From Desulfatiglandales bacterium (lineage in GTDB: Bacteria > Desulfobacterota > DSM-4660 > Desulfatiglandales > Desulfatiglandaceae), in contig OY759599.1 in NCBI GenBank assembly GCA_963662465.1, forward strand, positions 3,264,001 through 3,328,000: 64,000 nt of DNA, given 5' to 3'. A model generated the notes under the pieces. That model did not search any database. It saw only the letters and a program-made list of their open reading frames with translations, and was not told the origin of the DNA. The position numbers and the translations under genes were made by a program. Position 1 is the first letter of the stretch. The number at the start of each line of letters is the position of its first letter. Positions 23,690-62,325 of this stretch are shown piece after piece.

Positions 23690-24685
23690 TCACAAAAGCC
23701 CATCCAAAGGGCTTCGAACTACCGAAATGTCCTTTTCCATTACGTGGGTGTAGATCTCGGTGGTCTTCACATCCGCATGGCCCAACAATTCCTGAACCAC
23801 CCGAATGTTCACCCCGTTTTCAAGCAAATGCGTTGCAAAAGAATGGCGAAAGGTATGACAACCGACGGGTTTTGTAAGCCCCGCCTTTCCAACGGCGGCC
23901 TTCACGGCTTTTTGGAGCCCGGATTCAAGCACATGATGCCGCATTGTTTTACCTGATCGGGGATCCGTGCTGCGTTTTTTTGAGGGAAACACGTATTGCC
24001 AACCCAGGGATTTGGCGGCATTAGGGTATTTGCGAGCAAGGGCGTTCGGAAGATAAACGTCCCCATATCCATCCGCCAGGTCCCGCAGATGAAGATTTTC
24101 AGCCACTTCAACCTGATTTTTCATGAGGGAGTGGAGGGATTCCGGGAAAAGGGTGGTACGGTCCTTACCGCCCTTTGCGGCTCGAACGTAAATCAGCCTG
24201 CGTTCAAAATCAAGATCGCGAATACGCAAGCGGATGCACTCCATTAACCGCAGGCCGCTGCCATACAGGATTTTGGCCATGAGGAGATGTAACCCCTGCA
24301 TGTGTTCCAAAACAATGGAAACCTCCCGTTGGCTCATGACGACCGGGGGGCGGGAGCGTCTTTTGGCGCGGACAGGGTCAAGATCTTCGTCAACCGGAAT
24401 ATCAAGGACTCTTTTGTATAGGAAAATAATCGCATTGAGGGCTTGGCGCTGGGTGGAAGCGGCAACGTGTTGTTGGACCGCCAAATGGGACAGAAAGGTT
24501 TCAATTTCCTTCTTTCCCATATTCCGAGGATGGGTATTGCTCCCATGGTACCTGATATAGCGCATGATCCAATCGCAATAAGTTTGTTCGGTGCGATAGG
24601 CGTAGTGGTGATAGCGTAGAACCTGTCGAACCTGATCCATAAGACGAAGCTTGGGATCCGGTCGGAATTTTTTCGATTTTTCCAT
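23690..24685 (-). CDS. intI: integron integrase
   Basis: Tyrosine recombinase motifs [35 protein letters not shown] plus the IntI-specific insertion [14 protein letters not shown]....WQYVFPS; divergent from the array. Confidence 0.96.
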
Positions 24686-33167: not shown

Positions 33168-35393
33168 TGCGACGTGATGTCGCGTAAGTAGCTGTTTTGT
33201 ATATCAATATAAACCATATAACAAAACCCTGTTTTCTGCAACAGGTATTCTACCGGGACATGCGTCCGGAGTAATCCGGGGGTGTGAAGCTCTCGGGACA
33301 ATGAAGCCCGCGGAATTTTCCGGGAGAGGAAACCGTGAGGGGACCTCAACTCTGCAAGCATCATGCGGTAAGGGAGCTAGAATTGAGCAGTACGGTTAAC
33401 ACATGTGAATCGCTGCAGCGTCGTCACGAGAACAAGCCTAAGATGCTGAAAGGCTTGGACCAAAAAAGGTACGTGGCCAGGAACGGAGGCTGCGAACTCC
33501 TCCGTCGCGGATGTTGTGCCACCGGCGTAAAGGCGGAACCTAACCTGCTCTGGTACTTACGCGGAACATGGTAAGCCCGTAATCCTCCCCACGGGGAAAG
33601 CGAACCGCAAGGTGAGCCCATGGGGTTGCGGGTAAAGGATGTCAGAAAAAGCGAATGCCTCGTTGTAATGATGGGGATACGGATTGAAGGTGTAACTACC
33701 TACATGATCCGGCTCGAAAGAGAGCAGACTTCTGACCGGTGTTCCATTGCGAGATAATCTGTCGAATCTTTAAACAGGGGAAAGCAAATGACGGTGGCCG
33801 TTTTGGCGACTGGTGCACCTTTGGACGGAACAAACTGGTGGAAATCCATAAACTGGAAAACCGTCGGCGAGCACGTTAGAAGACTGCAGGTGCGTATCGC
33901 AAAGGCTGTGAAGGAAAAGCGATGGGGAAAAGTCAAGGTGATACAGTGGCTTTTGACTCATTCGTTTTATGCCAAGTTGTTGGCTATCAAGCGCGTTACT
34001 TCCAACCGGGGTAAACGCACACCGGGAGTGGATAAAGTCATATGGTCCACCCACATTGACAAAATGCAGGCGGTAAACGACCTGCGCCGAAGAGCCTACC
34101 GACCCAAACCGCTGCGCCGAATTTACATACCCAAGAAAAACGGCAAGAAACGCCCATTGGGCATTCCCACAATGAAGGACAGAGCCATGCAGGCGTTGTA
34201 CAAATTGGCGCTTGATCCGGTGGCGGAAACCACCGCCGATCCGAACTCTTACGGGTTCAGACCCTATCGGGGATGTGCGGATGCCATCGGTCAGTGTTTT
34301 ATTTCTCTGGCCAAGCGCCACTCACCCGTATGGATTCTGGAGGGAGATATAAAGGCCTGTTTTGATGAAATCAGCCATCAATGGATGCTCGAAAATATCC
34401 CTATGGATAAACGGACGCTTCAGAAATGGCTGAAATCCGGTTATGTGGAAGGAGGCAAGCTCTATCCAACTTACAGAGGAACCCCGCAAGGCGGGATTAT
34501 CTCTCCAACATTGGCTAATATGGTCCTGGATGGTCTGGAAGCGGCAGCCAAAAGTACCGCCCCGATAAGAATCCAGGGCAATATACGGTCCAAGATAAAC
34601 GTAATCCGTTACGCTGATGATTTCATCATCACCGGGAATTCCAGAGAGATGCTAAATGAGATCAAGCTGGAAATTGAAGCATTTATGGAGCGAAGAGGAC
34701 TTTCGCTTTCAGCGGAAAAGACGTTGATCACAAGGATAGAAGAAGGATTTGATTTTCTCGGACAGAATCCACGCAAATACCAGGGGAAGCTCTTGATAAA
34801 GCCCTCTCGCAAAAACGTGAAAGCCTTTTTAGGCAATATCCGGCAAACAATCCGAAAGCATGCGGCATCAAGAGCCGACATTCTGATTAAAGTACTCAAT
34901 CCCAAAATCAGGGGGTGGGCCAATTACCACAGGCATGTGGTTTCCGGTAGAACTTTCGGGCTTGTAGATCACCGTATCTACAGCTATATTTGGCAATGGA
35001 TGAGGAGGAAACATTCGGGCAAGAGTAAGAGTTGGCTGGTGGATAAATACTGGTCAAAAGGATCTCGCCCGTGGTCCTTTTCAGCGGTGATCAAGGACGG
35101 CTATGCGAAATCCGCCAGAATTGAACTTGAGAAAGCTTACGACGTCAAGATAAAACGCCATGTCAAAATTCGAGGGGATGCGAACCCCTTCGATCCGAAA
35201 TATGAACAATATTTCAGGAAACGATATGCCCAACGCAGTCAGCAGAAGGCAGACAGGCGTAAAGAGCATAAAACGTCACAACCGGGTAGCCCCGAAAGGG
35301 CTTGCCTTTGGAATGCTTGAGCCGTGTGCGTTTAACGGCGCACGCACGGTTCTTAGAGGGCTGGGGGATGGTGACATCCCCTGGCTACTCGAC
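33167..35393 (+). mobile_element. group II intron 1 (IIB-like, RT-encoding)
   Basis: 5' GTGCG; 34-nt domain V with AGC triad (35319-35352); domain VI ending CTACTCGAC. Removal gives GTTCGCC, exact complement of the cassette's own GGCGAAC (38094). Confidence 0.92.
33788..35320 (+). CDS. ltrA: group II intron reverse transcriptase/maturase, no C-terminal HNH endonuclease
   Basis: N-terminal RLQVRIAKA...TPGVD, RPLGIPT..DRAMQ, GTPQGGIISP.LAN, RYADDF, maturase LNPKIRGWANY; ends shortly after ANPFDP with no CxxC/HNH. Confidence 0.95.
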   Translation: MTVAVLATGAPLDGTNWWKSINWKTVGEHVRRLQVRIAKAVKEKRWGKVKVIQWLLTHSFYAKLLAIKRVTSNRGKRTPGVDKVIWSTHIDKMQAVNDLRRRAYRPKPLRRIYIPKKNGKKRPLGIPTMKDRAMQALYKLALDPVAETTADPNSYGFRPYRGCADAIGQCFISLAKRHSPVWILEGDIKACFDEISHQWMLENIPMDKRTLQKWLKSGYVEGGKLYPTYRGTPQGGIISPTLANMVLDGLEAAAKSTAPIRIQGNIRSKINVIRYADDFIITGNSREMLNEIKLEIEAFMERRGLSLSAEKTLITRIEEGFDFLGQNPRKYQGKLLIKPSRKNVKAFLGNIRQTIRKHAASRADILIKVLNPKIRGWANYHRHVVSGRTFGLVDHRIYSYIWQWMRRKHSGKSKSWLVDKYWSKGSRPWSFSAVIKDGYAKSARIELEKAYDVKIKRHVKIRGDANPFDPKYEQYFRKRYAQRSQQKADRRKEHKTSQPGSPERACLWNA

Positions 35394-42434: not shown

Positions 42435-43399
42435 TTGCGACACGAAGTCGCTTTAAATATATGTTTTCACAGAAGAATCGTGGAAACCCGGTGTTCCTCC
42501 ACCGGCATCCTAGGGAGGCATGCTGCCGTTGCGCTGATGACGGGGTGTGAAGCCCTCCCGACAATGTACCGAGGACCTTTGAAGTTGGAAAGTCGGGACA
42601 GAAAGCGTGAGTGGACTGTTCCTCTGGAAGCCTCATCCGGATTAGGGCTGGGATTGACTGATATGGTCAGTATATTCAAACACCTGCAGTATCGTAAACA
42701 GCAACAAGCCAAAGAGGCCGATAGGCTTGGACCAAACGGTGTGCGGCCAGGTCGGGAGTCTCGAACGTACGCCCGGCGCGGATGTTGTGCCGCCGGTATA
42801 GGGGGTGGACCTAAGTCAGTTAACAGTATTTATTGCGGAACGTGGTAAGCTCGTAACATCGCCATAAAGTTTTGTGGCAAGCCAACCGTGAGGCAGGCCG
42901 CTGGTGTTGCGGGTGCAAAACGCCTTACCAAGCCAATGCCCTCCTGAATGGGTGGGATACGGAGTTATCTCCGGCCCGAAAGGGAGCTGAATTTTGGCGG
43001 GTGCTCATGCGTGAGATAATTTGAAGAACCTTCTGATGGGAGAATAGCAAATGAGGGGTCTTCGTGACTGGTACACTTCCACAACAAGCTCCAAACTGGC
43101 AACTCATTAACTGGGATGTCGTCAAGAGTAACGTGAAAAGGCTTCAAATGCGTATTGCGCAGGCGGTTAAGGCGCAAAGATGGAAAAAGTGAAGGCTCTA
43201 CAGTGGCTTCTCTCCCATTCCTTCTCTGCGAAGTTATTGGCAAAAAAGGCCAAGAATGTTCGCCTTGCTTAGCCAATAACAACCGCCGGACTCTTCTGAT
43301 GAGAAAGGGTCTTACTGAGGGCTTGAGCCGTATGCTGGGAAACTCGCGTCTACGGTTCTGAGGAGGGAAGGAGGCCGGATGGCCTCCGACCTATCCGGT
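42435..43399 (+). mobile_element. group II intron 2, ORF-less (internally deleted RT)
   Basis: 5' TTGCG; frameshifted RT N-terminal remnant NWQLINWDVVKSNVKRLQMRIAQAVK/KVKALQWLLSHSF (~43051-43250); domain V 43325-43358; domain VI ending CTATCCGGT. Confidence 0.88.
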
Positions 43400-45979: not shown

Positions 45980-46759
45980 ATGCTCAGAAAACGGATTCGG
46001 ATCAATGAAGCGGGGTTGCACGGTGCGGTTTTCAAGATCGCGGATAGCATTGAAGAACTGGCGGGGTCATATAGGCTGGTTCATGACGCCTATGTGCATA
46101 AGGGGTATATGGACCCGGCACCTTCAGGGATGCGGGTGACCGAATTCACATTGAGCCCGCGCACCACCACCTTTATCGGAAGGCAAAACGGCGACATCAT
46201 CTCCACCATATCCCTTTTCGAGGATTCCAAAGCAGGACTGGCCATGGATGGCATTTACCAGGAGGAGCTGGATAAATTGAGAGAACAGGGGCGTAAGATC
46301 GCTGAGGTGGGGAGCCTGGCTGCTTCACCCGCCAACTGGAACGGAAGGCCTGATGCCACGTTTCACATGTTTAAGATCATGCTCAATTACGCCATGGACT
46401 ATCTCAATCTGGACGATCTGGTGATTGCCGTCAATCCCAGCCAGAAGCATTTTTATGTTTGGGCGCTGCTTTTTGACGAGATCGGCGGGCTGAAATCCTA
46501 TGAATACGTCAAATCCAACCCGGCTGTGGCCATGCGGATGCCTCTGGAAAAGTGTCAATACCGATACCTTGAAGCATACCAAGACCAAACCCTTAATAAA
46601 AATCTTCACCACTTTCTGTTTAAAATACAAAGCCCCCTGGTCCAACTGCCCGATGAAAAGAAACCGCACAGGGTGATGACCCCGCAAACAGCGGAATGGT
46701 TTTGTAAACGCTATGGCGTTGGCCATGAGCCGGAAAAGGCGGTTCAAAATGAACCATAA
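45980..46759 (+). CDS. N-acyl amino acid synthase (FeeM-like GNAT); may start at 45907 across a C13 tract
   Basis: YRLVHDAY..KGY, TISL..DS..GL.MD, IAEVGSLA, DLVIAVNP...FY...LLF, PAVA motifs. Confidence 0.75.
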   Translation: MLRKRIRINEAGLHGAVFKIADSIEELAGSYRLVHDAYVHKGYMDPAPSGMRVTEFTLSPRTTTFIGRQNGDIISTISLFEDSKAGLAMDGIYQEELDKLREQGRKIAEVGSLAASPANWNGRPDATFHMFKIMLNYAMDYLNLDDLVIAVNPSQKHFYVWALLFDEIGGLKSYEYVKSNPAVAMRMPLEKCQYRYLEAYQDQTLNKNLHHFLFKIQSPLVQLPDEKKPHRVMTPQTAEWFCKRYGVGHEPEKAVQNEP

Positions 46760-48293: not shown

Positions 48294-49078
48294 ATGCTCT
48301 ATATGAAGAAGCTGTTTATGAAACTCCCCGACCCCATCAAGGGTCCCATCCTGCGTAAACGCGTGTGGATCGATGAAAGCAAACTGGACAGGACCACCTT
48401 CAAGATCGCGGATACCGTCGAGGAGCTGGAAAGTGCCTACCGCCTGGTGCATGATGTGTATGTGAAGGAGGGGTACATGGACCCCCACCCTTCCAAAATG
48501 CGCATCACAAAATACAACCTGCTTTCTAAATCCACCACGTTTGTGGGGAAGCACGACGGTCGCGTGGTACTCACCATGTCGCTGATTCCGGATTCGGAAC
48601 ACGGGCTCCCCATGGATTCCCTGTTCAAGAGCGAACTGGATCAAATGCGGAATCGGGGGCGATATATCGCCGAGGTGGGAAATCTGGCCAGTGATCCGAA
48701 TTTCAGAAACCGTAACCAGAATGTGCCCACAGGTATCTGAATATTCATGATCTGGTGATCGCCATCAACCCCAGACATAAATGGTTTTACAGGAATATTC
48801 TCATGTTCAAAAAGATTTCCGGGAAACGGAATTATGATTATGTCAAAGGAGCTCCGGCTGTAGCGATGACTTTGGATCTTGTAACTGCCGAGAATCGATA
48901 TAAACAGACTTATGGAAATTCTACAGGCTACCCCCCCCCCCCCCCGAAACCTTCATCATTTCTTTTTCATGGAAAAAAGCCTTTCAATCCATCTGCCCAG
49001 GGAAACAAAACCCCACATTACCATGAAACCGGAAATCGTCTCCCATTTCAAAAAACATATTTCACAAAACCGCTCGTG
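48294..49078 (+). pseudogene. second FeeM-like acyltransferase, disrupted (internal stop/frame break and C15 frameshift)
   Basis: Similar to 45980-46759 in three frame segments: ...IAEVGNLA; DLVIAINP...PAVAM; RNLHHFFF... Confidence 0.75.
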
Positions 49079-49104
49079 ACCCCGGCGGGCGCTGGAGAAT
49101 ACCA

Positions 49105-49845
49105 ATGGAACGTATCCTGGAACCTGAAATCATGGCGGATAAAGGTGAGGCCGAGGCTTACGACCAGCTAGTTTCGGACCCGCAGGGGGAAATGCTGGAT
49201 ACCTGCTTTGCCCTTTCCGTTTTGGATGCGGCGCCTGCTCACGGCGTCATTCTGGATTTGGGCGTGGGCACTGCCAGAATCCCCATAAACATTCGGCGGT
49301 TTTCCGACCGGCATACCATCTGTGCTTTGGATATCTCCCAGAGCATGCTGGAAATCGCCGCCAAAAATATTGAGACTGGAGAGGCATTGGATATTCACTG
49401 TGTCCGCGCCGACATGAAACGTCTCCCCTTTCCGGATGCCTCCGTCGATATGGTCGTCAGTCATGTGGCCATGCATCATCTTCCGGAGCCCACCCGAATG
49501 CTCAAAGAGGCGGCAAGGGTTCTCAAGCATGAAGGGGCCTTTCTTATCAGAGACCTCAAAAGGCCGCCTAACCGCATAGCCCTTGCTCTGTATGTTCAGA
49601 TTTTCGGGGGGGGGGGGTACAATACGATTCAGAAAAAACTCTACCGGGATTCCCTCATGGCTGGTTTTACCGTACACGAACTGAGGCGAATGGCCGAAGA
49701 TGCGGGCCTCGAAAGATTTACCGTAAAGAAATACTTCATCACCCATGTGGGGATCGAAAGAAAGGCACCGGGAGCCAAACCGGGACCAAAGTTTGAGAAA
49801 AAGGGCGGCAAAGAAAAGTTAATGCAGCGACTTTACAGACGCTAA
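49105..49845 (+). CDS. class I SAM-dependent methyltransferase
   Basis: ILDLGVGTA, LDIS.SML, DMKRLPFPDASVD, MHHLPEP, RVLK..G; in-frame G12 tract. Confidence 0.9.
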   Translation: MERILEPEIMADKGEAEAYDQLVSDPQGEMLDTCFALSVLDAAPAHGVILDLGVGTARIPINIRRFSDRHTICALDISQSMLEIAAKNIETGEALDIHCVRADMKRLPFPDASVDMVVSHVAMHHLPEPTRMLKEAARVLKHEGAFLIRDLKRPPNRIALALYVQIFGGGGYNTIQKKLYRDSLMAGFTVHELRRMAEDAGLERFTVKKYFITHVGIERKAPGAKPGPKFEKKGGKEKLMQRLYRR

Positions 49846-50597: not shown

Positions 50598-50683
50598 GCA
50601 CAACCAAACGCTGCACCGGACCCCTAGACGCAACGGGGTAATGGGGACGTTGGGTGCAGGGGCCGGTGAGCTTGTCGTTGGAT
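50598..50683 (+). repeat. attC site
   Basis: GCACAAC (exact complement of GTTGTGC at 45834) ... GTTGGA. Confidence 0.9.
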
Positions 50684-51935
50684 TGCGACACGATGTCGCA
50701 TAGTTTGAGTGTATTCATGTAGTTACATGTAGTACCCGGTATGTTCCTACCGGACCCTACGCAGGCATGCTGCCGTTGCGCTGATGACGGGGTGTGAAGC
50801 CCTGCGGACAACGTACCGAATCGGGTTCAAATGGCGACAGGAGAACCCCTCCGGGAATCCTCCCGGTTAAGGGCTAGGGTCGGATGATATGGTGAAGGTA
50901 TCTGAATGTCTTTAAGCGTCGATTACAAGCGAAGGGCCTACGAGGATTAATAGGTCTTATGCCGCTGCCCAGTGTCAGCGGATGTGGTCAGGTTGCAGGT
51001 CTGCTAACGGCCTGCACGGAACTGTTGTACCACCGGCGTAGAGGGCGCACCTAAGTCATCCACAGGATCAACTATGTGGAACGTGGAAACCCGTTCCCGT
51101 CGCCCCCTTTGGGGGCAGGCTAACGTAAGGCATGCTGTTGGCGGGCCGGAGTAGGAGGCTGAAAAAAGCGAATGCCGGGCTGTAATGGTCCGGATACCGG
51201 GTGAAACATTCCCGGCTCCGTAAGGAGGCAGACGTTCAGCGCGGTGCCCGATTACGTGAACACCGGAGGAATCAGATGAAAGCGGGGAAAGCAGCCAGTG
51301 AAACGGGCGAATGACGGCCCTTGAGGCTGGTGCGCCCCGTATGCCTTTGGCTACTCTGACAACCGGCCTGTAACGTGAAGTGGATGCAAATCCGCGGGAA
51401 TCCCCACCAGGGAAACCTTTTCGGGGGCTTGAGCCACGTGAGGTGAAAGCCTCATGCGTGGTTCTGAGGGTAATAGCGGCATAATACACACCTCCGTACG
51501 TTATTGAAAATTAAAGACTTGTTGTTTTGAGTTTCTTGAAAGCGGGCTCTTTGGAAACCCGGAATGAGCTGCCTTTTTTATCACTTCAGATTCAAGGTCC
51601 TTTTTTGAAATGATCCATGGAGCACCGGAACATACTCGCTTGGCGGGTAGAATCTCATGTTGTATAAGTCTCCAAACTTTGGTGCTGCCAATACCCAGCC
51701 TTTCGCTTGCTTCAGCTACCGTATATTCTTCTCGTCGCTGCCTCTCTCCTTCATGATATACAGGGATATTATGCCTATTTCGAAATGAACGCAACCTTAC
51801 CGGATTCCAGGTATATCCCTTTGTAGTCTTTGTACCCACACGGTTGAGAAAGGCCACGATGTGTTTATCAGGCATAATTCTAGCCAAATCGGCTAAAGCG
51901 TCATTATACGGTTGGATCCATCAGCAGCTTTAGCC

Positions 51936-53798
51936 TCACTGCAATGTGCGAGGAGCACGGCTACTGGCTGCTTTCTTGATGCGATGATTCATCTGATCCG
52001 TCCTAACCAAACGTCTATCTGCTGTCGATAGAGATGCTGTAGAAAGCTGAAGCTCTTTTTTAAGATTCACAATTTCTTGGGAAGGCAGCCATTTATTCTT
52101 CCTATTCCGGTTTTCCATATCTAATTGCGCGAATGCAAGAGGAAGCTGATCGATCGATCCACAAACTATATTGACGTAATCGGCGTGTTCCAGATTATAT
52201 GCCAGAGCCGCTTCTGCCGGTAGATGTTCCAGATCCTGACCAAGATTTTTCCGTCCACTGCGCCGTCGTTCTCCATGCTTCATTGTTCCAAAGAAGTTTT
52301 CGAGCAGTTCGTTGGTTCGACTCATAAGCCGTATGCCGCCGCCTGTTCTTTCCGGCAAACATATGCTGTGCCCCCAAAGACTATCACCATGCGTGTCAAT
52401 ATGTTTGATTATAATATCAATAGCTTCCCGAATATCTTTTCCCGGGCCTCGTTTTGGCCGGCGATCTTTAAGGGCAGTCGTCCATGTTTCAAACTGATAC
52501 CGCATCTCGTTAAGGTCTTCTATTGATTCCTTATCCGGGAGTTCTTTTGCCAACCGCAATTGATTTCGCAGCTCATCGAATAAAGCAGCACGGCGGTGCA
52601 ACTGTTTGACAGTTTGACGAAAGGGCACTTCACAAGAAACCTTCGAAGCGATCCTCCTAAGCCGACGAATCATGCGCACAACATGCTTATCATTCGGAGG
52701 AATGCGAAGAAATGCATCTATTGCTCGCAGAGCAACCATACACCTGTTGAAAAAACTCAAATACGGTCTGTCAAAAGGAAAATCCAGGCCTGAAAGATCT
52801 GCCTTATAGTCGATTATCCACTGTGCTATGTTTCGTACAACGGCAAGGCCATCTCGTCCCGGTGGGAGACGATAGTCATCCCTCTCTTGCCAATCCAGAA
52901 CCGCCTGCCGTGTTTCATTGATCTCAAAGCCTATCTCTCGCCCGATCTCACGGACTAAGTTATTGATTTTAGGTCGTACTTTTGTACGCCGGAAATGGTC
53001 CCGCAAAGCGGAATGGTCAGGTTTTATAAGGTCTTTACCAATGTCGGCAAGAAAGTGTTGATGGCAAGCTAACACGGGTATATCCAATTGCATCTCAGAT
53101 ACGAGTTCGTCGATGGCCGGCGATACCGCGCGTCCCAAGTCGCGCATGGCTCCGCAAGGCGGGCCGAATCGACTGACCGTATCCCGCATGCAGGGTAACA
53201 AAAGATCGGCTCGTTCAGTTGAAATTTTCCAGGCGCCAAGCACCCATTTTCTCCAACCAGCCATCACAACAAATAGGGTCCCTCGACCGGCTTCTCCAGT
53301 GGCATCCACTTGCATCGGCCAACCCCCATCCGCCTCCAGGACCCCTTTCAATTGCTCAGCCCGCACGTGATGAAGTCTGAGCAAGTATTCCAAAAAGTAT
53401 CGTGTCAGATTGCTAACCTCACCGCAAGACAATTTGATGCCGTGCCTTTCCTTTAATTCTGCTTTTATTTCCTCTCTCTGTTTATAGCCGAGCAGCCTAT
53501 TGAGACCCACATAAACCATTACGTCATAACCGACAATGCCGTTTGGCATAATGGTCCGAACGACCGATTCTGCTCTCTTGGTAAACAATGTCCCATCATC
53601 ATTACGGCACCGCTCCGAACATACATGTACCGTTTCCCTAACATTAAACGTACCATGCTCGATGGTCCGTCCTTCATGCACAAACGTTTTTTGTACACGC
53701 ATCGGTCCATTGCAGAGTTCACATACCCCAACCTCATCCTTAGCAGATACAACGATATCCGCTAACCCGACCACTTGTTTAAAACAACTATCATTCAA
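51936..53798 (-). CDS. putative DDE transposase (IS OrfB)
   Basis: CELC, MQVDATGE, AMRDLG, CHQHF, RTNELLENFF motifs inside the TIRs. Confidence 0.8.
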   Translation of the reverse strand: MNDSCFKQVVGLADIVVSAKDEVGVCELCNGPMRVQKTFVHEGRTIEHGTFNVRETVHVCSERCRNDDGTLFTKRAESVVRTIMPNGIVGYDVMVYVGLNRLLGYKQREEIKAELKERHGIKLSCGEVSNLTRYFLEYLLRLHHVRAEQLKGVLEADGGWPMQVDATGEAGRGTLFVVMAGWRKWVLGAWKISTERADLLLPCMRDTVSRFGPPCGAMRDLGRAVSPAIDELVSEMQLDIPVLACHQHFLADIGKDLIKPDHSALRDHFRRTKVRPKINNLVREIGREIGFEINETRQAVLDWQERDDYRLPPGRDGLAVVRNIAQWIIDYKADLSGLDFPFDRPYLSFFNRCMVALRAIDAFLRIPPNDKHVVRMIRRLRRIASKVSCEVPFRQTVKQLHRRAALFDELRNQLRLAKELPDKESIEDLNEMRYQFETWTTALKDRRPKRGPGKDIREAIDIIIKHIDTHGDSLWGHSICLPERTGGGIRLMSRTNELLENFFGTMKHGERRRSGRKNLGQDLEHLPAEAALAYNLEHADYVNIVCGSIDQLPLAFAQLDMENRNRKNKWLPSQEIVNLKKELQLSTASLSTADRRLVRTDQMNHRIKKAASSRAPRTLQ

Positions 53799-53833
53799 AC
53801 GATGCGCCTGATGCCTTAGGTAGACCAGCGTTT

Positions 53834-54526
53834 TCAGCGGAATCTTGACGTTTTTTTTTCTGCTTGAATGCCATGTTCTGAAAAAATCCGGTTCACCTGA
53901 TCGACAGTGACGGCCAATCCCCGAACGGCGAGGCGGGTTGCTATTTCAGATTGAGATACAATAACTTGGCCCGCCTTCAGCGCTTCCACAAGAACAGCAA
54001 TGGTCGTTTCCATTGGGACCGGCCCGACAATTTGAACCCCTTCTTGTATATGTACGCGACGCGCCGCTATTTGCACTTTTCCTTTATCCGGATCTCCATT
54101 GGTATATAAGGAAAGCCCTTCGGATCGGTGCCGACTTATCTGCTGGGATTGAACCAGCCCATGAAGCGTGTTGTGCAACGTGTTGGGAATCCGAATCTTC
54201 AACAAATGCAACAGCTCTTTCGGTGTCATTCCGGCATTCGATAAATGCACAATTTCCACCACAGTCGCTTTTAGCGTGCCGGCCTTTGAAAAGCCGATTC
54301 CCCGATAAAACCACAAACCCCAAGAATCAAACGAAGGAATATCCTCAAGGGTGTAGTAACGACCGGCATCCGTAAAGCTTGTCAAGTATCCGATAAGTTT
54401 AAGCCTCCGGAATACACTCATCCGAGAACTTGTTTTCAGTACATGGAAGAGCTGATTGAGATCTGCGATGTATTTCTTCCTAAACCATTTATGTAAAGCC
54501 TTTTTGGAGTCTTCAGGAGATAACAT
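53834..54526 (-). CDS. IS OrfA, probable DNA-binding part; A9 slippery site at its end
   Basis: Inside the TIRs; ends GCA GAA AAA AAA ACG and overlaps the open -1 frame of OrfB. Confidence 0.75.
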   Translation of the reverse strand: MLSPEDSKKALHKWFRKKYIADLNQLFHVLKTSSRMSVFRRLKLIGYLTSFTDAGRYYTLEDIPSFDSWGLWFYRGIGFSKAGTLKATVVEIVHLSNAGMTPKELLHLLKIRIPNTLHNTLHGLVQSQQISRHRSEGLSLYTNGDPDKGKVQIAARRVHIQEGVQIVGPVPMETTIAVLVEALKAGQVIVSQSEIATRLAVRGLAVTVDQVNRIFSEHGIQAEKKTSRFR

Positions 54527-56610
54527 GTGACCTCTGATACATTTATTTGTTTTCTGTGGCTATTTCCAAATAAATGTATCAAAATGCCAATTGCTTGTCA
54601 ATCCTCCAATTCAATAAAATCAAGTGGTTACTGAAATATAAGGTTTGTTTCCCAGCGTTTGTGTGGTACAATTATGAAAAAAATATCAAAGATAATACCG
54701 TTAATTCAATGGCTTATTGAATCCAACCGTATCCTGACGCTGTAGCAAATCGGATATTATCTTTTTTGTATCAACATCGGTTTTCAATGGGTAACTGGAA
54801 GACTTATTCTTCAGTACCTCCAATTCCGTATGCTCACCCCCTTCCCAGTGAATGATTAATTTGATCTTTTGCTCTTCCAAATAAACAACGATCTCTTTGA
54901 TAACCGTCCGGATTATACGCTTCTTTAAATCCAAAGAGCAACACGGATTATTCCATACACGAGGTAAATCTTGTGACAGATCTCTGATCTCGGTCTCTTC
55001 CTCAGGGGAAAGCGAAGGGGTGTTCGACCCCATAGCGGTAATCTCATTCTCCAACCTTGCTACCTTAACAAGAGCGTCATTCCAATCCTTCTCCAATGTA
55101 GATGCTACCAAACGATTATCAGGGTCCACTGCATTGTATTGACGTTTTGCCCGTAAAGCTTCATAACGCGCTTGTTCCAACTCCAGTTCCCGTTGCCGTT
55201 TCACTGAATCCGATTCATGGTTGATTTTCTTTATCGCCTCTAAAGAAGCTTCTAATCCTATCGGTGATAATACTTTCAAAAGAAAATCCGTAACAGCCCG
55301 GTCAACACGGAATCCACCAAATGATATACACGCCTTTCCTGTCTCGTTACCTCGTTTGCGGCTACACTCATAACGTTTATGAGTTCCATTACGGCCTTGG
55401 TATCGTACAATTAACTTTCTGCCGCAATGACCGCATCTTAACAAACCTCCAAGCAATGCCTTTCCTCCGCGAACAGCTCCTCTCACCACCGGCCTTTTCT
55501 TATTTGTATTTTGAGTTAGTATCTCCATGTTATACTGGTACTCTTCCCATGTGATGTAACCTTCATGGTGATCCAATATTAAAACGTCCCAATCCTTTTG
55601 TTCCTTACGAATACCCTTCCTCAGTCGCTTGCGCCCATTTTCAAAAGTTACCTCTGTTTTAGTCCGGCCATAGACGTAGGCGCCGGCGTAAATTGGGTTG
55701 TTCACTATATGCGACAAGGTATGAGCAGACGGTAGTTTCCACTCTATCCTACGTTCCCCTTTACCGCTGGAAACAACAGCAATCTCAATCTGTTCATCTA
55801 AAAACCAATGATACACCCGACGAAGAGTACCATATTCCTTGAATTTCGTGAATACCAAATCAATGACTTCTTGAATTCGTTTGTCAGGATTCTTTTTCAG
55901 CTTATTATCCCTAGTCTTTATATAGGCTGCCGGTACAGTAAGATATAATTCTCCCCGCTTCGCTTTTTGTTGTATTGCCGCCTGAGAACGCTCCTTTAAT
56001 AGGCTCAATTCCATTGCACTCATTTCTCCCTTTAAGCCCAGGAGCAAACGATCATTTGACACGTTTAGGTCATAAACAGCTCCTTGATCTACAAGAACCG
56101 TTTTTTTAAGTGCACAGATCTCAAGCAACGTATGCCACTCTCGACCGTTGCGGGCCAACCTCGATGATTCAATCGAGAAAATACCCCCTATTCTTCCTTC
56201 ACACACAGATGAAAGAAGATTCTGGAATCCTTTTCTGTCAACGCATCCCGATGCAGTTATTCCCAAATCACTATCTATCATCCATATGTTTTTCTCGTTC
56301 CATCCTAATTCTTTTGCCCTTTCTACCAAGCCATATTGTAAAAGTTGGCTTTCACGATGCTGTAGAACTTGGCCCGGTGTTGACTGACGGATATATATAC
56401 ATGCTTCCCGACTAATATGTTCAGCATTGATTTTATTGCTCATGCTCATTTCCACCTTTCTTTTCTCGAAATGTCAACCGAAAATTGACCTCTTGCGACA
56501 ACCGAATTTTGCCCCCACATGAGTAATTGTAACCTGCGACGCGGTCATAGAAGGCTCCGGTGGCTCCTGCCGAAATATCCATTAAAAGAGCGACCATAAC
56601 CGCACCTTAG

Positions 56611-56817
56611 TCAGCTTCCGACCAGATAATCATCTGGTAAGTCGAGAAAACCCTTTTTCGTCGCTAATTCGAGTTCAATCAAATACCCTATCTCGCCTTT
56701 CATTTTGATCTGTGAAACCATCCACTTCGGTAACCGAATCGTGACGGGGATACGCCTCAGATGTTCAGGACTCCTTTTTCGACCAGCGCCTTTTCGACTC
56801 CCACCTCTCATTTTCAT
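56611..56817 (-). CDS. small putative DNA-binding protein (copy 1)
   Basis: RGGSRKGAGRK then VTIRLP; identical to 61366-61572. Confidence 0.65.
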   Translation of the reverse strand: MKMRGGSRKGAGRKRSPEHLRRIPVTIRLPKWMVSQIKMKGEIGYLIELELATKKGFLDLPDDYLVGS

Positions 56818-57618
56818 CGCTCCTTTTCACCTTCAAATTCGTCCAATATTTTTGAATACCGCGTACGTTTTTCAATTAAACACCTATTTCTATCGGAAAA
56901 TAAGGTATTTATGATTTATAGTTACGATTTTTCTGAGTCGGATTAAGCTGCTTGCTTCAACAACTCCAGTCTCTTGACTGCTTCCAATATCAGACCGCGA
57001 TTTTACGTTAGTGAAACTACTTCTCTTTTCTATTTCTGTTACCCTCAGAATTTTGCCAGAAACCTGACAGAAGCTCTGCAAGGAAATCAATCAATCTATT
57101 TCGTGTTTCTATTGGAATTTCGATCGGTGATGGTAAATAATCCCAAAGCCGAAGTTGATGATATTTTTGTTTCGTCATCTTTCCTCCTTGTTTTCGAATT
57201 GACTTCATCAGGAGGAAACGGTATTTTTCTATTCACTATTAAGCAATATAAATTCTTAAGCGCCCTGATTTCGATAGCGGGTTTTGAGCCGAGGGATATC
57301 TTTTCATACTTTGGATTGGTCATCCACGCAGGTATCAATTCATGGCGACCATCAGGTTTCTTTGTTACAAAACAAGTTTCTCCACGATGGTTTCTGGTAC
57401 CTACCACATAAATTTCTTCACCGGTTCTTGGGTGAAATGGGTAATATACCCGAGTTATAAACTGGTTTTGATGGGCATTATATAGTGGTTCTGAGGGGGC
57501 TCGGGGATGGCAACATCCCCCGGCTACCCGGCCCCCCCCTCAAAATCCAACGATTTACCTTGACAAACAGTCTTACTGTTGTACAATTGTCCAAAAAGCA
57601 TTTAGATGAAGGTAAAAT

Positions 57619-58011
57619 ATGGACATTGTAATTGACACATCAGCACTGATTGCGGTGATCGTTGGTGAACCACAACGTACCAAAATAATAGAAATAACGT
57701 CAGGAAATACACTGATTGGTCCAGGATCTATTCCGTGGGAAATTGGTAACGCATTTTCGGCTATGTTCAAGCGAAAAAGGCTGTCACTTGAGGAAGCGAA
57801 AAAAGGGTTTTCAATCTTCGATAGCATCCCCATTCGATACATTGAGACTGATTTTATAAGTGTTCTAAACATATCAAAACGAGCAGCTATGTATGCATAC
57901 GATGCCTATTTTTTGGATTGTGCATCAAGGCAAAAAGCTCCTCTATTAACATTGGATCGAAGGTTAAAAGCCTCTGCCCAAGATTTTAAAATTGATACCA
58001 TGGAGGTTTAA
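57619..58011 (+). CDS. PIN-domain (VapC-like) toxin
   Basis: IVIDTSALIA, WEIGNA, AYDAYFL, LLTLD; TTGACA...TACAAT promoter upstream (~57560-57588). Confidence 0.9.
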   Translation: MDIVIDTSALIAVIVGEPQRTKIIEITSGNTLIGPGSIPWEIGNAFSAMFKRKRLSLEEAKKGFSIFDSIPIRYIETDFISVLNISKRAAMYAYDAYFLDCASRQKAPLLTLDRRLKASAQDFKIDTMEV

Positions 58012-58012
58012 A

Positions 58013-58231
58013 ATGCAAGTTTATACATATTCAGAAGCTCGTCAAAAGCTTGCTACGGTTCTTGAGCAGGCTGAAAATACAGGTAAAGTGATAATTCGAA
58101 GGAAAGATGGGAGAACGTTCTCCTTGGTTCCGGAAAAAGCTGCTACATCACCACTAAATGTTCCAACAATAAAAGCAAATATAACAACACAAGAAATAGT
58201 TGACATCATTCGCGAAGGAAGGGAAAGGTAG
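58013..58231 (+). CDS. Phd/YefM-family antitoxin
   Basis: YTYSEARQKLATVLEQA...VIIRRKDG; stop codon overlaps the attC. Confidence 0.88.
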   Translation: MQVYTYSEARQKLATVLEQAENTGKVIIRRKDGRTFSLVPEKAATSPLNVPTIKANITTQEIVDIIREGRER

Positions 58232-58313
58232 AACCAAACGCTGCACCAGACGCCTGATACTTGGGCGGTTCCAGCGGGGGCCGGCAGAGGCGCTGGTGAG
58301 CTAGACGTTAGCT
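58228..58313 (+). repeat. attC site (86-bp family)
   Basis: GTAGAAC ... GTTAGC. Confidence 0.9.
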
Positions 58314-59115
58314 TGCGACACGATGTCGCATAGTTTGAGTGTATTCATGTAGTTACATGTAGCACCCGGTATGTTCCTACCGGACCCTACGCAGGCATGC
58401 TGCCGTTGCGCTGATGACGGGGTGTGAAGCCCTGCGGACAACGTACCGAATCGGGTTCAAATGGCGACAGGAGAACCCCTCCGGGAATCCTCCCCGGTTA
58501 AGGGCTAGGGTCGGATGATATGGTGAAGGTATCTGAATGTCTTTAAGCGTCGATTACAAGCGAAGAGCCTACGAGGATTAATAGGTCTTATGCCGCTGCC
58601 CAGTGTCAGCGGATGTGGTCAGGTTGCAGGTCTGCTAACGGCCTGCACGGAACTGTTGTACCACCGGCGTAGAGGGCGCACCTAAGTCATCCACAGGATC
58701 AACTATGTGGAACGTGGAAACCCGGTCCCGTCGCCCCTTTTGGGGCAGGCTAACCGCAAGGCATGCTGTTGGCGGGCCGGAGTAGGAGGCTGAAAAAAGC
58801 GAATGCCGGGCTGTAATGGTCCGGATACCGGGTGAAACATTCCCGGCTCCGTAAGGAGGCAGACGTTCAGCGCGGTGCCCGATCACGTGAACACCGGAGG
58901 AATCAGATGAAAGCGGGGAAAGCAAATGACGGCCCTTGAGGCTGGTGCGCCCCGTGCGCCTTTGGCTATTCTGACAGCTGGCCTGTAACGTGAAGTGGAT
59001 GCAAATCTGCGGGAATCCCCACCAGGGAAACCTTTTCGGGGGCTTGAGCCACGTGAGGTGAAAGTCTCATGCGTGGTTCTGAGGGTAATAGCGGCATAAT
59101 ACACACCTCCGTACG

Positions 59116-61209
59116 TTATTGAAAATTAAAGACTTGTTGTTTTGAGTTTCTTGAAAGCGGGCTCTTTGGAAGCCCGGAATGAGCTGCCTTTTTTATCACT
59201 TCAGATTCAAGGTCCTTTTTTGAAATGATCCATGGAGCACCGGAACATACTCGCTTGGCGGGTAGAATCTCATGTTGTATAAGTCTCCAAACTTTGGTGC
59301 TGCCAATACCCAGCCTTTCGCTTGCTTCAGCTACCGTATATTCTTCTCGTCGCTGCCTCTCTCCTTCATGATATACAGGGATATTATGCCTATTTCGAAA
59401 TGAACGCAACCTTACCGGATTCCAGGTATATCCCTTTGTAGTCTTTGTACCCACACGGTTGAGAAAGGCCACGATGTGTTTATCAGGCATAATTCTAGCC
59501 AAATCGGATATTATCTTTTTTGTATCAACATCGGTTTTCAATGGGTAACTGGAAGACTTATTCTTCAATACCTCCAATTCCGTATGCTCACCCCCTTCCC
59601 AGTGAATGATTAATTTGATCTTTTGATCTTCCAAATAAACAACGATCTCTTTGATAACCGTCCGGATTATACGCTTCTTTAAATCCAAAGAGCAAAACGG
59701 ATCATTCCATACACGAGGTAAATCTTTTGATAGATCTCTGATCTCAGTCTCCTCCTCAGGGGAAAGCGAAGGGGTGTTCGATCCCATGGCGTCAACCTCA
59801 TTCTCCAATCTTGCTACCTTAACAAGAGCGTCATTCCAATCCTTCTCCAATGTAGATGCTACCAAACGATTATCAGGGTCTACTGCATTGTATTGACGTT
59901 TTGCCCGTAAAGCTTCATAACGCGCTTGTTCCAACTCCAGTTCCCGTTGCCGTTTCACTGAATCCGATTCATGGTTGATTTTCTTTATCGCCTCTAAAGA
60001 AGCTTCTAATCCTATCGGTGATAATACTTTCAAAAGAAAATCCGTAACAGCCCGGTCAACACGAAATCCACCAAATGATATACACGCCTTTCCTGTCTCG
60101 GTACCTCGTTTGCGGCTACACTCATAACGTTTATGAGTTCCATTACGGCCTTGGTATCGTACAATTAACTTTCTGCCGCAATGACCGCATCTTAACAAAC
60201 CTCCAAGCAATGCCTTTCCTCCGCGAACAGATCCTCTCACCACCGGCCTTTTCTTATTTGTATTTTGAGTTAGTATCTCCATGTTATACTGGTACTCTTC
60301 CCATGTGATGTAACCTTCATGGTGATCCAATATTAAAACGTCCCAATCCTTTTGTTCCTTACGAATACCCTTCCTCAGTCGCTTGCGCCCATTTTCAAAA
60401 GTTACCTCTGTTTTAGTCCGGCCATAGGCGTAGGCACCGGCGTAAATTGGGTTGTTCACTATATGCGAGAAGGTATGAGCAGACGGTAGTTTCCACTCTA
60501 TCCTACGTTCCCCTTTACCGCTGGAAACAACAGCAATCTCAATCTGTTTATCTAAAAACCAATGATACACCCGACGAAGGGTACCATATTCCTTGAATTT
60601 CGTGAATACCAAATCAATGACTTCTTGAATTCGTTTGTCAGGATTCTTTTTCAGCTTATTATCCCTGGTCTTTATATAGGCTGCCGGTACAGTAAGATAT
60701 AATTCTCCCCGCTTCGCTTTTTGTTGTATTGCCGCCTGAGAACGTTCCTTTAATAGGCTCAATTCCATTGCACTCATTTCTCCCTTTAAGCCCAGGAGCA
60801 AACGATCATTTGACACGTTTAGGTCATAAACAGCTCCTTGGTCTACAAGAACCGTTTTTTTAAGTGCACAGATCTCAAGCAACGTATGCCACTCTCGACC
60901 GTTGCGGGCCAACCTCGATGATTCAATCGAGAAAATACCCCCTATTCTTCCTTCACACACAGATGAAAGAAGATTCTGGAATCCTTTTCTGTCAACGCAT
61001 CCCGATGCAGTTATTCCCAAATCACTATCTATCATCCATATGTTTTTCTCGTTCCATCCTAATTCTTTTGCCCTTTCTACCAAGCCATATTGTAAAAGTT
61101 GGCTTTCACGATGCTGTAGAACTTGGCCCGGTGTTGACTGACGGATATATATACATGCTTCCCGACTAATATGTTCAGCATTGATTTTATTGCTCATGCT
61201 CATTTCCAC
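59116..61209 (-). CDS. large serine recombinase with zinc ribbon and C-terminal HTH (Y4bA-like)
   Basis: YIRQS catalytic motif, SRLARN, NPIYAG recombinase domain, LLRCGHCG...YEC, C-terminal YTVAEASERLGI. Confidence 0.95.
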   Translation of the reverse strand: MEMSMSNKINAEHISREACIYIRQSTPGQVLQHRESQLLQYGLVERAKELGWNEKNIWMIDSDLGITASGCVDRKGFQNLLSSVCEGRIGGIFSIESSRLARNGREWHTLLEICALKKTVLVDQGAVYDLNVSNDRLLLGLKGEMSAMELSLLKERSQAAIQQKAKRGELYLTVPAAYIKTRDNKLKKNPDKRIQEVIDLVFTKFKEYGTLRRVYHWFLDKQIEIAVVSSGKGERRIEWKLPSAHTFSHIVNNPIYAGAYAYGRTKTEVTFENGRKRLRKGIRKEQKDWDVLILDHHEGYITWEEYQYNMEILTQNTNKKRPVVRGSVRGGKALLGGLLRCGHCGRKLIVRYQGRNGTHKRYECSRKRGTETGKACISFGGFRVDRAVTDFLLKVLSPIGLEASLEAIKKINHESDSVKRQRELELEQARYEALRAKRQYNAVDPDNRLVASTLEKDWNDALVKVARLENEVDAMGSNTPSLSPEEETEIRDLSKDLPRVWNDPFCSLDLKKRIIRTVIKEIVVYLEDQKIKLIIHWEGGEHTELEVLKNKSSSYPLKTDVDTKKIISDLARIMPDKHIVAFLNRVGTKTTKGYTWNPVRLRSFRNRHNIPVYHEGERQRREEYTVAEASERLGIGSTKVWRLIQHEILPAKRVCSGAPWIISKKDLESEVIKKAAHSGLPKSPLSRNSKQQVFNFQ

Positions 61210-61365
61210 CTTTCTTTTCTCGAAATGTCAACCGAAAATTGACCTCTTGCGACAACCGAATTTTGACCCCCATATGAGTAATTGTAAGCTGCGACGAAGT
61301 CATAGAAGGCTCCGGTGGCTCCTGCCGAAATATCCATTAAAAGAGCGACCATAACCGCACCTTAG

Positions 61366-61572
61366 TCAGCTTCCGACCAGATAATCATCTGGTAAGTCGA
61401 GAAAACCCTTTTTCGTCGCTAATTCGAGTTCAATCAAATACCCTATCTCGCCTTTCATTTTGATCTGTGAAACCATCCACTTCGGTAACCGAATCGTGAC
61501 GGGGATACGCCTCAGATGTTCAGGACTCCTTTTTCGACCAGCGCCTTTTCGACTCCCACCTCTCATTTTCAT
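61366..61572 (-). CDS. small putative DNA-binding protein (copy 2)
   Basis: AAGGAG RBS; RGGSRKGAGRK, VTIRLP. Confidence 0.65.
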   Translation of the reverse strand: MKMRGGSRKGAGRKRSPEHLRRIPVTIRLPKWMVSQIKMKGEIGYLIELELATKKGFLDLPDDYLVGS

Positions 61573-61771
61573 CGCTCCTTTTCACCTTCAAATTCGTCCA
61601 ATATTTTTGAATACCGTGTACGTTTTTCAGTTAAACACCTATTTCTATCGGAAAATAAGCTATTTATGATTTATCGTTACGATTTTTCTGAGTCGGATTA
61701 AGCTGCTTGCTTCAACAACTCCAGTCTCTTGACTGCTTCCAATATCAGACCGCGATTTTACGTTAGTGAAA

Positions 61772-61963
61772 CTACTTCTCTTTTCTATTTCTGTTACCCT
61801 CAGAATTTTGCCAGAAACCTGACAGAAGCTCTGCAAGGAAATCAATCAATCTATTTCGTGTTTCTATTGGAATTTCGATCGGTGATGGTAAATAATCCCA
61901 AAGCCGAAGTTGATGATATTTTTGTTTCGTCATCTTTCCTCCTTGTTTTCGAATTGACTTCAT
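61772..61963 (-). CDS. small hypothetical protein of the recombinase element (copy 1 at 57017-57208)
   Basis: GGAGG before MTKQKY; identical in both copies. Confidence 0.55.
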   Translation of the reverse strand: MKSIRKQGGKMTKQKYHQLRLWDYLPSPIEIPIETRNRLIDFLAELLSGFWQNSEGNRNRKEK

Positions 61964-62252
61964 CAGGAGGAAACGGTATTTTTCTATTCACTATTAAGCA
62001 ATATAAATTCTTAAGCGCCCTGATTTCGATAGCGGGTTTTGAGCCGAGGGATATCTTTTCATACTTTGGATTGGTCATCCACGCAGGTATCAATTCATGG
62101 CGACCATCAGGTTTCTTTGTTACAAAACAAGTTTCTCCACGATGCTTTCTGGTACCTACCACATAAATTTCTTCACCGGTTCTTGGGTGAAATGGGTAAT
62201 ATACCCGAGTTATAAACTGGTTTTGATGGGCATTATATAGTGGTTCTGAGGG
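61851..62252 (-). CDS. start-less body of a DUF5372-like gene; 5' end supplied by 59086-59110 on circularisation (copy 1 at 57096-57497)
   Basis: YPFHPRTG...IPAWMT motif; frame open across the 13-bp core. Confidence 0.75.
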   Translation of the reverse strand, partial: PSEPLYNAHQNQFITRVYYPFHPRTGEEIYVVGTRKHRGETCFVTKKPDGRHELIPAWMTNPKYEKISLGSKPAIEIRALKNLYCLIVNRKIPFPPDEVNSKTRRKDDETKISSTSALGLFTITDRNSNRNTK

Positions 62253-62325
62253 GGCTCGGGGATGGCAACATCCCCCGGCTACCCGGCGTATTCTTTTAAG
62301 TGTGTCGAGAGATGGAGGAAAAACA

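Follow-up and report, generated by a model that had tools for sequence, protein, structure and literature searches.

Organization of the locus

The DNA analyzed here (the window) is a stretch of 64,000 nucleotides from the genome of a Desulfatiglandales bacterium (assembly GCA_963662465.1, contig OY759599.1, positions 3,264,001 to 3,328,000), and it contains two copies of a compact element encoding a large serine recombinase (LSR), each lying inside a group II intron at the junction between intron domains V and VI (DV and DVI). Coordinates refer to the window unless the genome is named. Rfam models identify four group II introns in the window, all on the + strand. Matches to RF02012, which covers the 5' domains D1–D4, start at 33227, 42487, 50735 and 58365, and matches to RF00029, which covers DV–DVI, start at 35317 (56 bits), 43323 (52.6 bits), 51429 (45.3 bits) and 59044 (45.8 bits). 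Introns 1 and 2 have complete DV–DVI matches with variant junctions and no element inside, just as an earlier reading of the window by a model that saw only the sequence (the original prediction) had described. Introns 3 and 4 are occupied by the element and have no open reading frame (ORF) of their own. Their D1–D4 domains are present, with RF02012 scores of 75.5 and 78.1 bits. The RF00029 match is genuine for DV only, the DVI half of the model being placed on element sequence, and this is why introns 3 and 4 reach only 45.3 and 45.8 bits.

The 5' part of intron 3 through DV and the left core spans 50683..51470 on the + strand, with the core of the left attachment junction (attL) at 51458–51470, the RF02012 match at 50735–50874 and the RF00029 match at 51429–51499, and it is 95.9% identical by blastn to the 5' part of intron 4. 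Element copy A follows at 51471..57484 on the − strand, and the core of the right attachment junction (attR, 57485–57497) leads into DVI of intron 3 and its 3' end (57485..57532, + strand). The 5' part of intron 4 through DV and the left core spans 58310..59085 on the + strand (attL core 59073–59085; RF02012 58365–58505; RF00029 59044–59114), followed by the intact element copy B at 59086..62239 on the − strand and by the attR core (62240–62252) with DVI of intron 4 (62240..62287, + strand). The span between the cores is 3,154 bp in copy B and 6,014 bp in copy A. Copy A is about 6 kb long because a 2,850-bp insertion sequence (IS)-like element (51896..54745, − strand) splits its recombinase gene into fragments at 54701–56455 and 51501–51887; beside the insert, copy A is 99.5% identical to copy B over 425 bp and 98.7% identical over 2,740 bp (blastn). 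The original prediction had described two elements of about 3.15 kb flanked by direct repeats at the DV/DVI junction. The repeats and the site are as described, and the size holds for copy B only.

All genes of the element are antisense to the intron and are arranged, from the right end, in the order DUF5372-like gene body, orf63, orf68 and recombinase gene. The recombinase gene of copy B (59116..61209, − strand) encodes a protein of 697 amino acids with a Resolvase domain (PF00239, residues 19–169, E = 7e-19), a Recombinase domain (PF07508, 5.4e-12), a zinc ribbon (Zn_ribbon_recom, PF13408, 7.2e-08) and a C-terminal excisionase-like helix-turn-helix (HTH) domain (HTH_17, PF12728, 3.1e-07), and it matches the phrog_95 integrase family at 5.8e-54. 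Tyr-21, Arg-23, Gln-24, Ser-25, Thr-26 and Gln-29 are invariant across 55 aligned relatives, and the family motif suggests that Ser-25 is the nucleophile. The small gene orf63 (61772..61963, − strand) is conserved in 30 public loci with 41–61% identity by tblastn and has no family match.

The DV/DVI junction as the attachment site

The 13-mer GTGGTTCTGAGGG consists of the final 7 nt of DV, the 3-nt linker and the initial 3 nt of DVI. It occurs exactly four times in the window, at 51458, 57485, 59073 and 62240, always on the + strand, and the same four sites are the only ones found when up to two mismatches are allowed; four or more occurrences were seen in 2 of 100 shuffles. When the DNA between the repeats is removed by script, the DV hairpin that forms is canonical and is separated by 3 nt of linker from a DVI hairpin in which one A is bulged. 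The restored intron end, CTACCCGGC, folds at −45.5 and −40.6 kcal/mol in the two cases, in agreement with the original prediction that removal of the element restores a contiguous DV–DVI with this ending. Folding of the unedited attL junctions of both window copies yields no DVI hairpin. The right junction alone scores 12.4 bits with RF00029 because only half of the model is present there, and folding and natural empty sites were used in its place.

Since an intron and the element within it could have duplicated together, two copies in one window are weak evidence for a choice of site. That question is settled by the data from the whole genome and from metagenomes. A search of the assembly, a single contig of 8.16 Mb, has identified seven copies of the element (A–G) that are 98.9–99.8% alike, copy B being 98.7–99.6% identical to the six others. 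An RF00029 match lies 5 nt from the recombinase stop codon in six of the seven copies; five exceed the gathering score, and the value for copy C is 37.1 bits. A single intron lineage hosts copies A, B, D, E and G, each of which is flanked at both ends by the exact 13-mer. There are 13 exact 13-mer cores in the genome, 11 at element ends and two in naturally empty introns of the same first lineage (genome 3334730 and 3354006), for which RF00029 gives 57.2 and 67.5 bits. The attL of copy C (genome 4984149–4987302) lies in DV of a second lineage that is 98.5–100% identical to window intron 2, so that the earlier view of the variant junction of intron 2 as refractory does not stand: copy C sits in exactly that type of DV. 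The right end of copy C lies in DVI of the first lineage, giving it chimeric flanks, and the attR of copy F (genome 6823249–6826402) lies in DVI of a third intron lineage. The two commonest intron families, with 13 and 10 copies and other linker sequences (GGA and TTA), contain no element.

Relatives of the recombinase are found at 46 public loci (7 from genomes and 39 from metagenomes), most of them on contigs of 2–4 kb. The left-end anchor is held by 30 loci, and the 24 of these with at least 55 nt of flanking DNA form the informative set. A complete DV hairpin ends 2–3 nt from the element, whose recombinase is 70–84% identical to the one here, in 19 of the 24 informative loci, and one more locus has the 3' half of DV. 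Of the 19, 17 are supported by Rfam DV models at E ≤ 0.1, with every match antisense to the recombinase gene, and the two others have an intron D1–D4 match a few hundred bases beyond. The original prediction had proposed a scan of homologue flanks with RF00029, and homologues sitting mostly in unrelated targets would have spoken against it; the flanks are predominantly DV. At least 15 distinct DV sequences are present at the ends of the public elements, and the host introns match RF02012, RF02005 and RF01999, representing three D1–D4 types. On the opposite side, 18 of 21 flanks form a DVI-like fold, and 13 of these have a single bulged A. No intron adjoins the element of L078, whose recombinase is 50% identical, or the relatives with about 35% identity, and because of this the intron target is assigned to the clade with at least 70% identity. 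The ORF flanking the L078 element has no Pfam match.

The DV/DVI junction of group II introns is thus strongly supported, at the level of sequence comparison, as the attachment site of an LSR element that would be a parasite of another mobile element. The original prediction of a hyperparasite using a conserved ribozyme sequence as its bacterial attachment site (attB) is supported by the seven genome copies, whose ends lie in three intron lineages, by the empty sites and by the public loci with DV at the element end.

A minority of flanks weigh against this reading. Four of the 24 informative loci are without DV, namely L050, L052 and L053, which represent one sequence, and L073; the first three have an intron D1–D4 match 240 bp away. 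Flanking DNA without intron-like character is found to the left of the element in L072 and L073 and to its right in L046, L058 and L064; in L058 a DV lies at either side, the two being inverted relative to each other, and the right flank of L064 is non-intron DNA. The left flank of copy F is an IS91-like gene and not an intron; a comparison with two intact units indicates that 2,768 bp, DV included, have been deleted there. The flanks of copy C, as described above, come from different intron lineages. Judged from these loci, secondary rearrangements are common around the element.

Apart from the question of the target, mismatched flanks recur in copies C and F and in L058, L064 and L050/L052/L053 as chimeric intron halves, the 2,768-bp deletion or inverted DV, and element copies seem to drive rearrangements.

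Probable position of the crossover

In the public two-ended loci, the junction lies at a fixed distance from each end anchor, and the dinucleotide TG is present on both sides in 13 of 17 loci. The remaining four count against a uniform crossover; two of them show rearrangement, and the other two come from a lineage whose offset is 1 nt. The identity shared by both junctions ranges from 2 nt (TG only, in L059 and L066) to 10 nt in the public loci and is 13 nt here. An end repeat of varying length that shrinks to 2 bp fits the trace left by a serine recombinase and not the target duplication made by a transposase. Copy C bounds the exchange to the right of position 2 and to the left of position 13 of the 13-mer, and copy F bounds it to positions 7–9. 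Since these limits and the comparative mapping coincide at TG, the data indicate a crossover at TG, the dinucleotide with which the linker begins. TG is not self-complementary, which fits the single orientation of insertion. Placing the crossover by eye from the symmetry of inverted repeats in the element's own attachment site (attP) disagreed with the comparative mapping and was dropped.

A candidate small gene split by integration

At the left end of the element, the recombinase stop codon is followed by 6 nt, a Shine–Dalgarno sequence GGAGG (59106–59110), 8 nt and an ATG (59095–59097) that reads outward across the attachment site. This putative 5' piece of a split gene (59095..59110, − strand) is present in all 30 public left-anchor loci. 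At the right end lies the body of a DUF5372-like gene (61851..62240, − strand), which has 129 codons and a stop codon, lacks a start codon of its own and keeps its frame open across attR; a Pfam DUF5372 hit below the cut-off and an alignment of 18 relatives bear on its identity. Scripted joining of the two ends produces an open frame from the left ATG into the DUF5372-like body in all seven copies of this genome and in 19 of 19 public two-ended loci, with 6 codons from the left end and about 108–138 from the right end. In 16 distinct junction sequences, stop codons are found in frame 0 in none, in frame 1 in 13 and in frame 2 in all 16, and a start codon within the right-end part is found in only one. 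The alignment of the body has 25 invariant columns in 18 sequences. These features, which go beyond the claims of the original prediction and are new in this analysis, suggest that the DUF5372-like protein would be translated only from the form with joined ends and may modulate the recombinase.

A complex prediction for recombinase residues 180–697 and the small protein gave a score of 0.68, the best of three controls reaching 0.01; a score of 0.68 is reached by 116 of 157 solved complexes and by 2 of 215 mismatched pairs. Contact agreement across runs was at least 68%, and the predicted local distance difference test (pLDDT) value of the partner was at least 71. The predicted interface consists of the zinc ribbon (residues 337–347) and both feet of the coiled coil (residues 395–412, 482–518 and 523–544), which places the predicted binding site of the DUF5372-like product at the base of the recombinase's coiled coil. 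The zinc domain and the coiled-coil base are the site on an integrase at which a directionality factor binds, according to a passage of PMC5814800. The predicted structure of the DUF5372-like protein itself has a mean pLDDT of 67.5, with blocks of 87–93 for residues 11–60, and comprises a four-stranded beta unit and helices. True DUF5372 genes are present in 6 of 301 genomes of the phylum, and a recombinase homologue lies downstream on the same strand in all four loci with enough sequence. A search with the DUF5372 family gave no match in this genome (G000), and the profile of the DUF5372-like protein has found no solved relative among PDB sequences, giving only chance-level interleukin-8 rows. 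A Tudor- or SH3-like fold was considered on the basis of rows with E values of 0.05–0.25, which are not evidence, and was rejected.

Several points count against a regulatory role for the split gene. The DUF5372-like protein scores 19.9 bits against Pfam DUF5372 (PF17342), below the cut-off of 25, and no PDB structure matches its predicted structure at E ≤ 0.001 in a Foldseek comparison. The spacing of the split gene is also constrained by the attachment site, and the invariant residues at the start of the protein overlap the conserved right-end anchor. A classical excision-promoting cofactor would be useless if made only after excision.

These points lend themselves to another explanation, namely that integration at the DV/DVI junction is real and the joined frame is a by-product of the fixed geometry of the attachment site, the protein being made otherwise, not being made, or having no role in recombination. 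The first dozen or so codons do overlap the binding arms of the recombinase, which fixes the spacing anyway, and the coincidence of invariant start residues with the right-end anchor and the poor sense of an excision factor made only after excision would follow as well. Promoter-like sites in the element are not above chance (7 found against 6.4 expected from shuffles), and a scan for terminators was likewise not above shuffles. A by-product of geometry does not, however, predict the absence of stop codons from the joined frame alone when nearly all junctions have stops in the other two frames, the near absence of an own start codon, or the Shine–Dalgarno sequence and ATG placed 6 nt past the recombinase stop in every anchored relative. 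It also sits poorly with the conservation of the body and with the predicted binding to the recombinase with its clean controls. The same layout, with an ATG after the recombinase stop and a startless body, is found in the 50% identical relative L078 (1830–4423), which is at a non-intron site. The by-product explanation is therefore rather unlikely, though it deserves to be taken seriously.

If the DUF5372-like protein does act on the recombinase, a role on the integration side, or in shutting off a separate excision factor such as orf63, seems more likely, because a classical excision factor would be useless in the joined-ends form. A fuller proposal would be that a widespread cargo-less family with a DV–linker–DVI attachment site senses its own topology by means of the split gene: a cofactor of the coiled-coil hinge would be whole only on the circle, would be made when integration is chosen and would be destroyed by integration, so that a directionality switch would be built into the attachment site itself. 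We regard this proposal as a tentative one, with prospects somewhat short of even. If true, the split cofactor gene would be a simple and testable answer to the problem of serine integrase directionality and would give a function to the uncharacterized DUF5372 family.

Proposed mechanism of integration and origin of the copies

Taken as a whole, it is highly probable that the LSR element integrates at the DV/DVI junction; it would move via a circle and carry a candidate gene that is split by integration. The 697-residue LSR would be the only enzyme of this compact integrative element and would join attP, formed by the joined element ends, with attB, which would be the DNA for the DV 3' strand, the 3-nt linker and the DVI 5' strand of group II introns. 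The crossover would be the 2-bp TG that opens the linker, and the element would always enter antisense to the intron. A conserved, multi-copy and host-dispensable target would provide many safe landing sites, and each intron copy that is entered would be disabled by the element. Movement would proceed through an excised circle. From this circle alone the split gene would be translated, the ribosome-binding site and first 6 codons coming from one end and the other 129 codons from the opposite end, and its DUF5372-like product may act on the recombinase as a directionality cofactor.

The copies within this genome could alternatively have arisen if intron and element form a composite that moves in the manner of an intron, either retrohoming with the help of an in trans reverse transcriptase or passing between intron copies through homologous recombination, and if the position of the element merely reflects common descent. 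Intron reverse transcriptases do exist in the genome, for example at 33788–35320 of the window, and the five main-lineage copies have the identical 13-bp core on both sides. The occupied main-lineage introns are also somewhat closer to each other (96.1–98.6%) than to empty ones (95.2–96.8%), which runs counter to wholly independent integration; because of this, some co-spread with the intron or gene conversion within the main lineage may have contributed. Against a composite, the host intron parts are 96.1–98.6% alike and the elements 98.9–99.8%, so that divergence among the elements is lower by a factor of two to five, and introns and elements do not fall into matching groups; elements A and G, for instance, are 99.81% alike and their host introns 97.46% alike. 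Independent integration would fit the divergence and the discordant groupings better than composite spread. Element ends lie in three intron lineages of this genome and, in the public loci, next to at least 15 distinct DV sequences of three D1–D4 types, and introns of the same lineage exist empty. The shrinkage of end identity to TG in some relatives is unexpected from composite descent. Moreover, a 3-kb insert in the 3-nt DV–DVI linker should prevent branching. The composite explanation is therefore very unlikely.

Excised forms have been sought in the assembly and in public data. In the assembled genome no attP junction is present, all seven left and seven right ends being integrated, and the joined-ends pattern was not found in 94 fetched loci or in viral contigs; these results speak against the proposed circle as far as such collections go. 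No right-end-to-left-end joint was found among four public runs, for which contigs were searched; as contigs drop rare forms, this result has no bearing on excision. Contigs of run X1 contain two joints that skip the element, from 59072 to 62240 and from 59083 to 62250 (with sides of 20 and 31 nt), and these empty-form joints are not distinguishable from the naturally empty introns of the genome.

The original prediction had further proposed that the element is a reversible DNA switch on splicing. Insertion does put 3 kb between DV and DVI and precise removal would restore an intact DV–DVI, but a device that switches host-intron splicing for the benefit of the host or intron is extremely unlikely: the material described above contains neither an excised circle nor a restored site that could be ascribed to excision, the seven copies, many relatives, IS-killed copy and flanking deletions have the appearance of an element that spreads selfishly and decays, and the host introns are ORF-less and lie in an integron cassette array, where little host function depends on their splicing.

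Relation to known systems

Serine-integrase integrative elements, moved by phage and island integrases such as those of phiC31, Bxb1, A118 and SPbeta, share with the present element an LSR with resolvase, recombinase and zinc ribbon domains, short attachment sites and, as far as can be judged from its ends, a 2-bp crossover, a single orientation and no target duplication. Unlike them, the element has no phage or island cargo, is multi-copy in one genome, and has as its target the ribozyme-core DNA of a mobile element and not a host gene; in addition, its recombinase has a fused C-terminal excisionase-like HTH, and integration cuts a candidate cofactor gene in two. Tn4451/Tn4453 (TnpX) and Tn5397 (TndX) are transposons moved by an LSR, and when Tn4451 circularizes, a promoter for tnpX is formed. 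The present element resembles Tn4451 and Tn5397 in being moved by an LSR, in occupying several sites per genome and, according to our interpretation of the joined frame, in linking gene expression to joined ends. It differs from them in that they have resistance cargo and loose sites around GA, whereas a defined ribozyme motif with TG is used here; unlike in Tn4451, the joining of the ends would rebuild a coding sequence and not a promoter. In the integration-dependent immunity of mycobacteriophages, attP lies within the repressor gene and integration trims a C-terminal tag. The element is similar in that attP would lie inside a gene and integration would alter the protein made, and differs in that integration would remove the ribosome-binding site and first 6 codons of a candidate recombinase cofactor.

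Twintrons are mobile elements within other mobile DNA. Insertion sequences target repetitive extragenic palindromic (REP) elements, as stated in a passage of PMC1525189, and group IIC introns associate with integrons at attC sites, as stated in a passage of PMC7923331. Like these, the present element lands in conserved, multi-copy and dispensable DNA; unlike them, it appears to use serine site-specific recombination, not retrohoming or DDE transposition, and its target is the junction of catalytic hairpins. A passage of PMC10083194 describes DUF4368 as common in multi-targeting recombinases. The recombinase of the present element differs from these in having no DUF4368 among its Pfam matches at E ≤ 0.01 and in aiming at a defined motif instead of a loose one. 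Durrant et al. 2022 allow for recombinases aimed at repeated sequences, and no group II intron target is named in the passages considered (PMC10083194).

The full-text literature, subscription-only papers and supplements lying outside the search, gave no description of group II introns as targets of a serine recombinase, nor any mention of DUF5372. Known landing sites of serine integrases are host genes and loose motifs. The clade described here would add a target class, since the DNA it is aimed at is the most conserved part of a ribozyme that both splices itself and is mobile, and group II introns would thereby gain a natural enemy or passenger of a new kind. The findings also help to account for the presence of these recombinase genes on metagenome contigs of 2–4 kb. 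The clade also offers dozens of natural pairs of recombinases and attachment sites, in which attB varies in step with the intron DV/DVI, as tools for studying how DNA is read.

Genomic surroundings and additional features

The window introns belong to a cassette array that lies past an integron integrase gene (23696..24643, − strand; genome 3287696–3288643; TIGR02249, 444 bits against a cut-off of 265). The array (genome 3287696–3354082) has more than 65 kb of co-oriented small genes and at least 11 co-oriented group II introns, and its cassette-like genes include toxin–antitoxin pairs. It is unlikely that splicing of the host introns within such an array matters to the host. The genome has five integron integrase matches over the curated cut-off, and copy C lies 2 kb from another of these integrases. 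At the site of copy A the nesting has four levels, the integron array containing the intron, the intron the recombinase element and the recombinase element the IS.

The gene orf68 (61366..61572, − strand) is an extra module of the element version of this genome, and none of the public loci carry it. Most relatives of the element are about 2.6 kb long, compared with 3.15 kb here, because orf68 is an add-on confined to this version. The genome contains 34 weaker relatives of orf68 elsewhere, with 63–71% protein identity (for example at genome 174379–174519 and 5960262–5960652), and another multi-copy element is the probable source of this module. The three small ORFs of the element and the two ORFs of the nested IS-like element match no PHROG or NCBIfam family.

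The nested IS-like element (genome 3315896–3318745) was delimited by its junctions and by a second genomic copy (genome 2503357–2506166). It has an 8-bp target duplication, which differs from the one at the second copy, and its termini are imperfect inverted repeats some 27 bp long. Its two ORFs (230 and 620 amino acids) lack a Pfam match as well, so it may represent an undescribed transposase family.

Window intron 2 (42487–43399) has 106 bp that are extra in comparison with the host intron of copy C (genome 4983378–4984148). A gene unit of the IS91-like type (Y2 transposase), 84% identical to the gene flanking copy F, is present in eight tandem copies 1,609 bp apart at genome 4413001–4425229; it adjoins an integron integrase gene at 4425408–4426355 and looks like an amplified cassette. 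Two adjacent ORFs of the window (48294–48740 and 48755–49171) each match a part of the FeeM N-acyl amino acid synthase family, and they are probably one gene broken by a frameshift, near an intact FeeM-like gene at 45980–46759.

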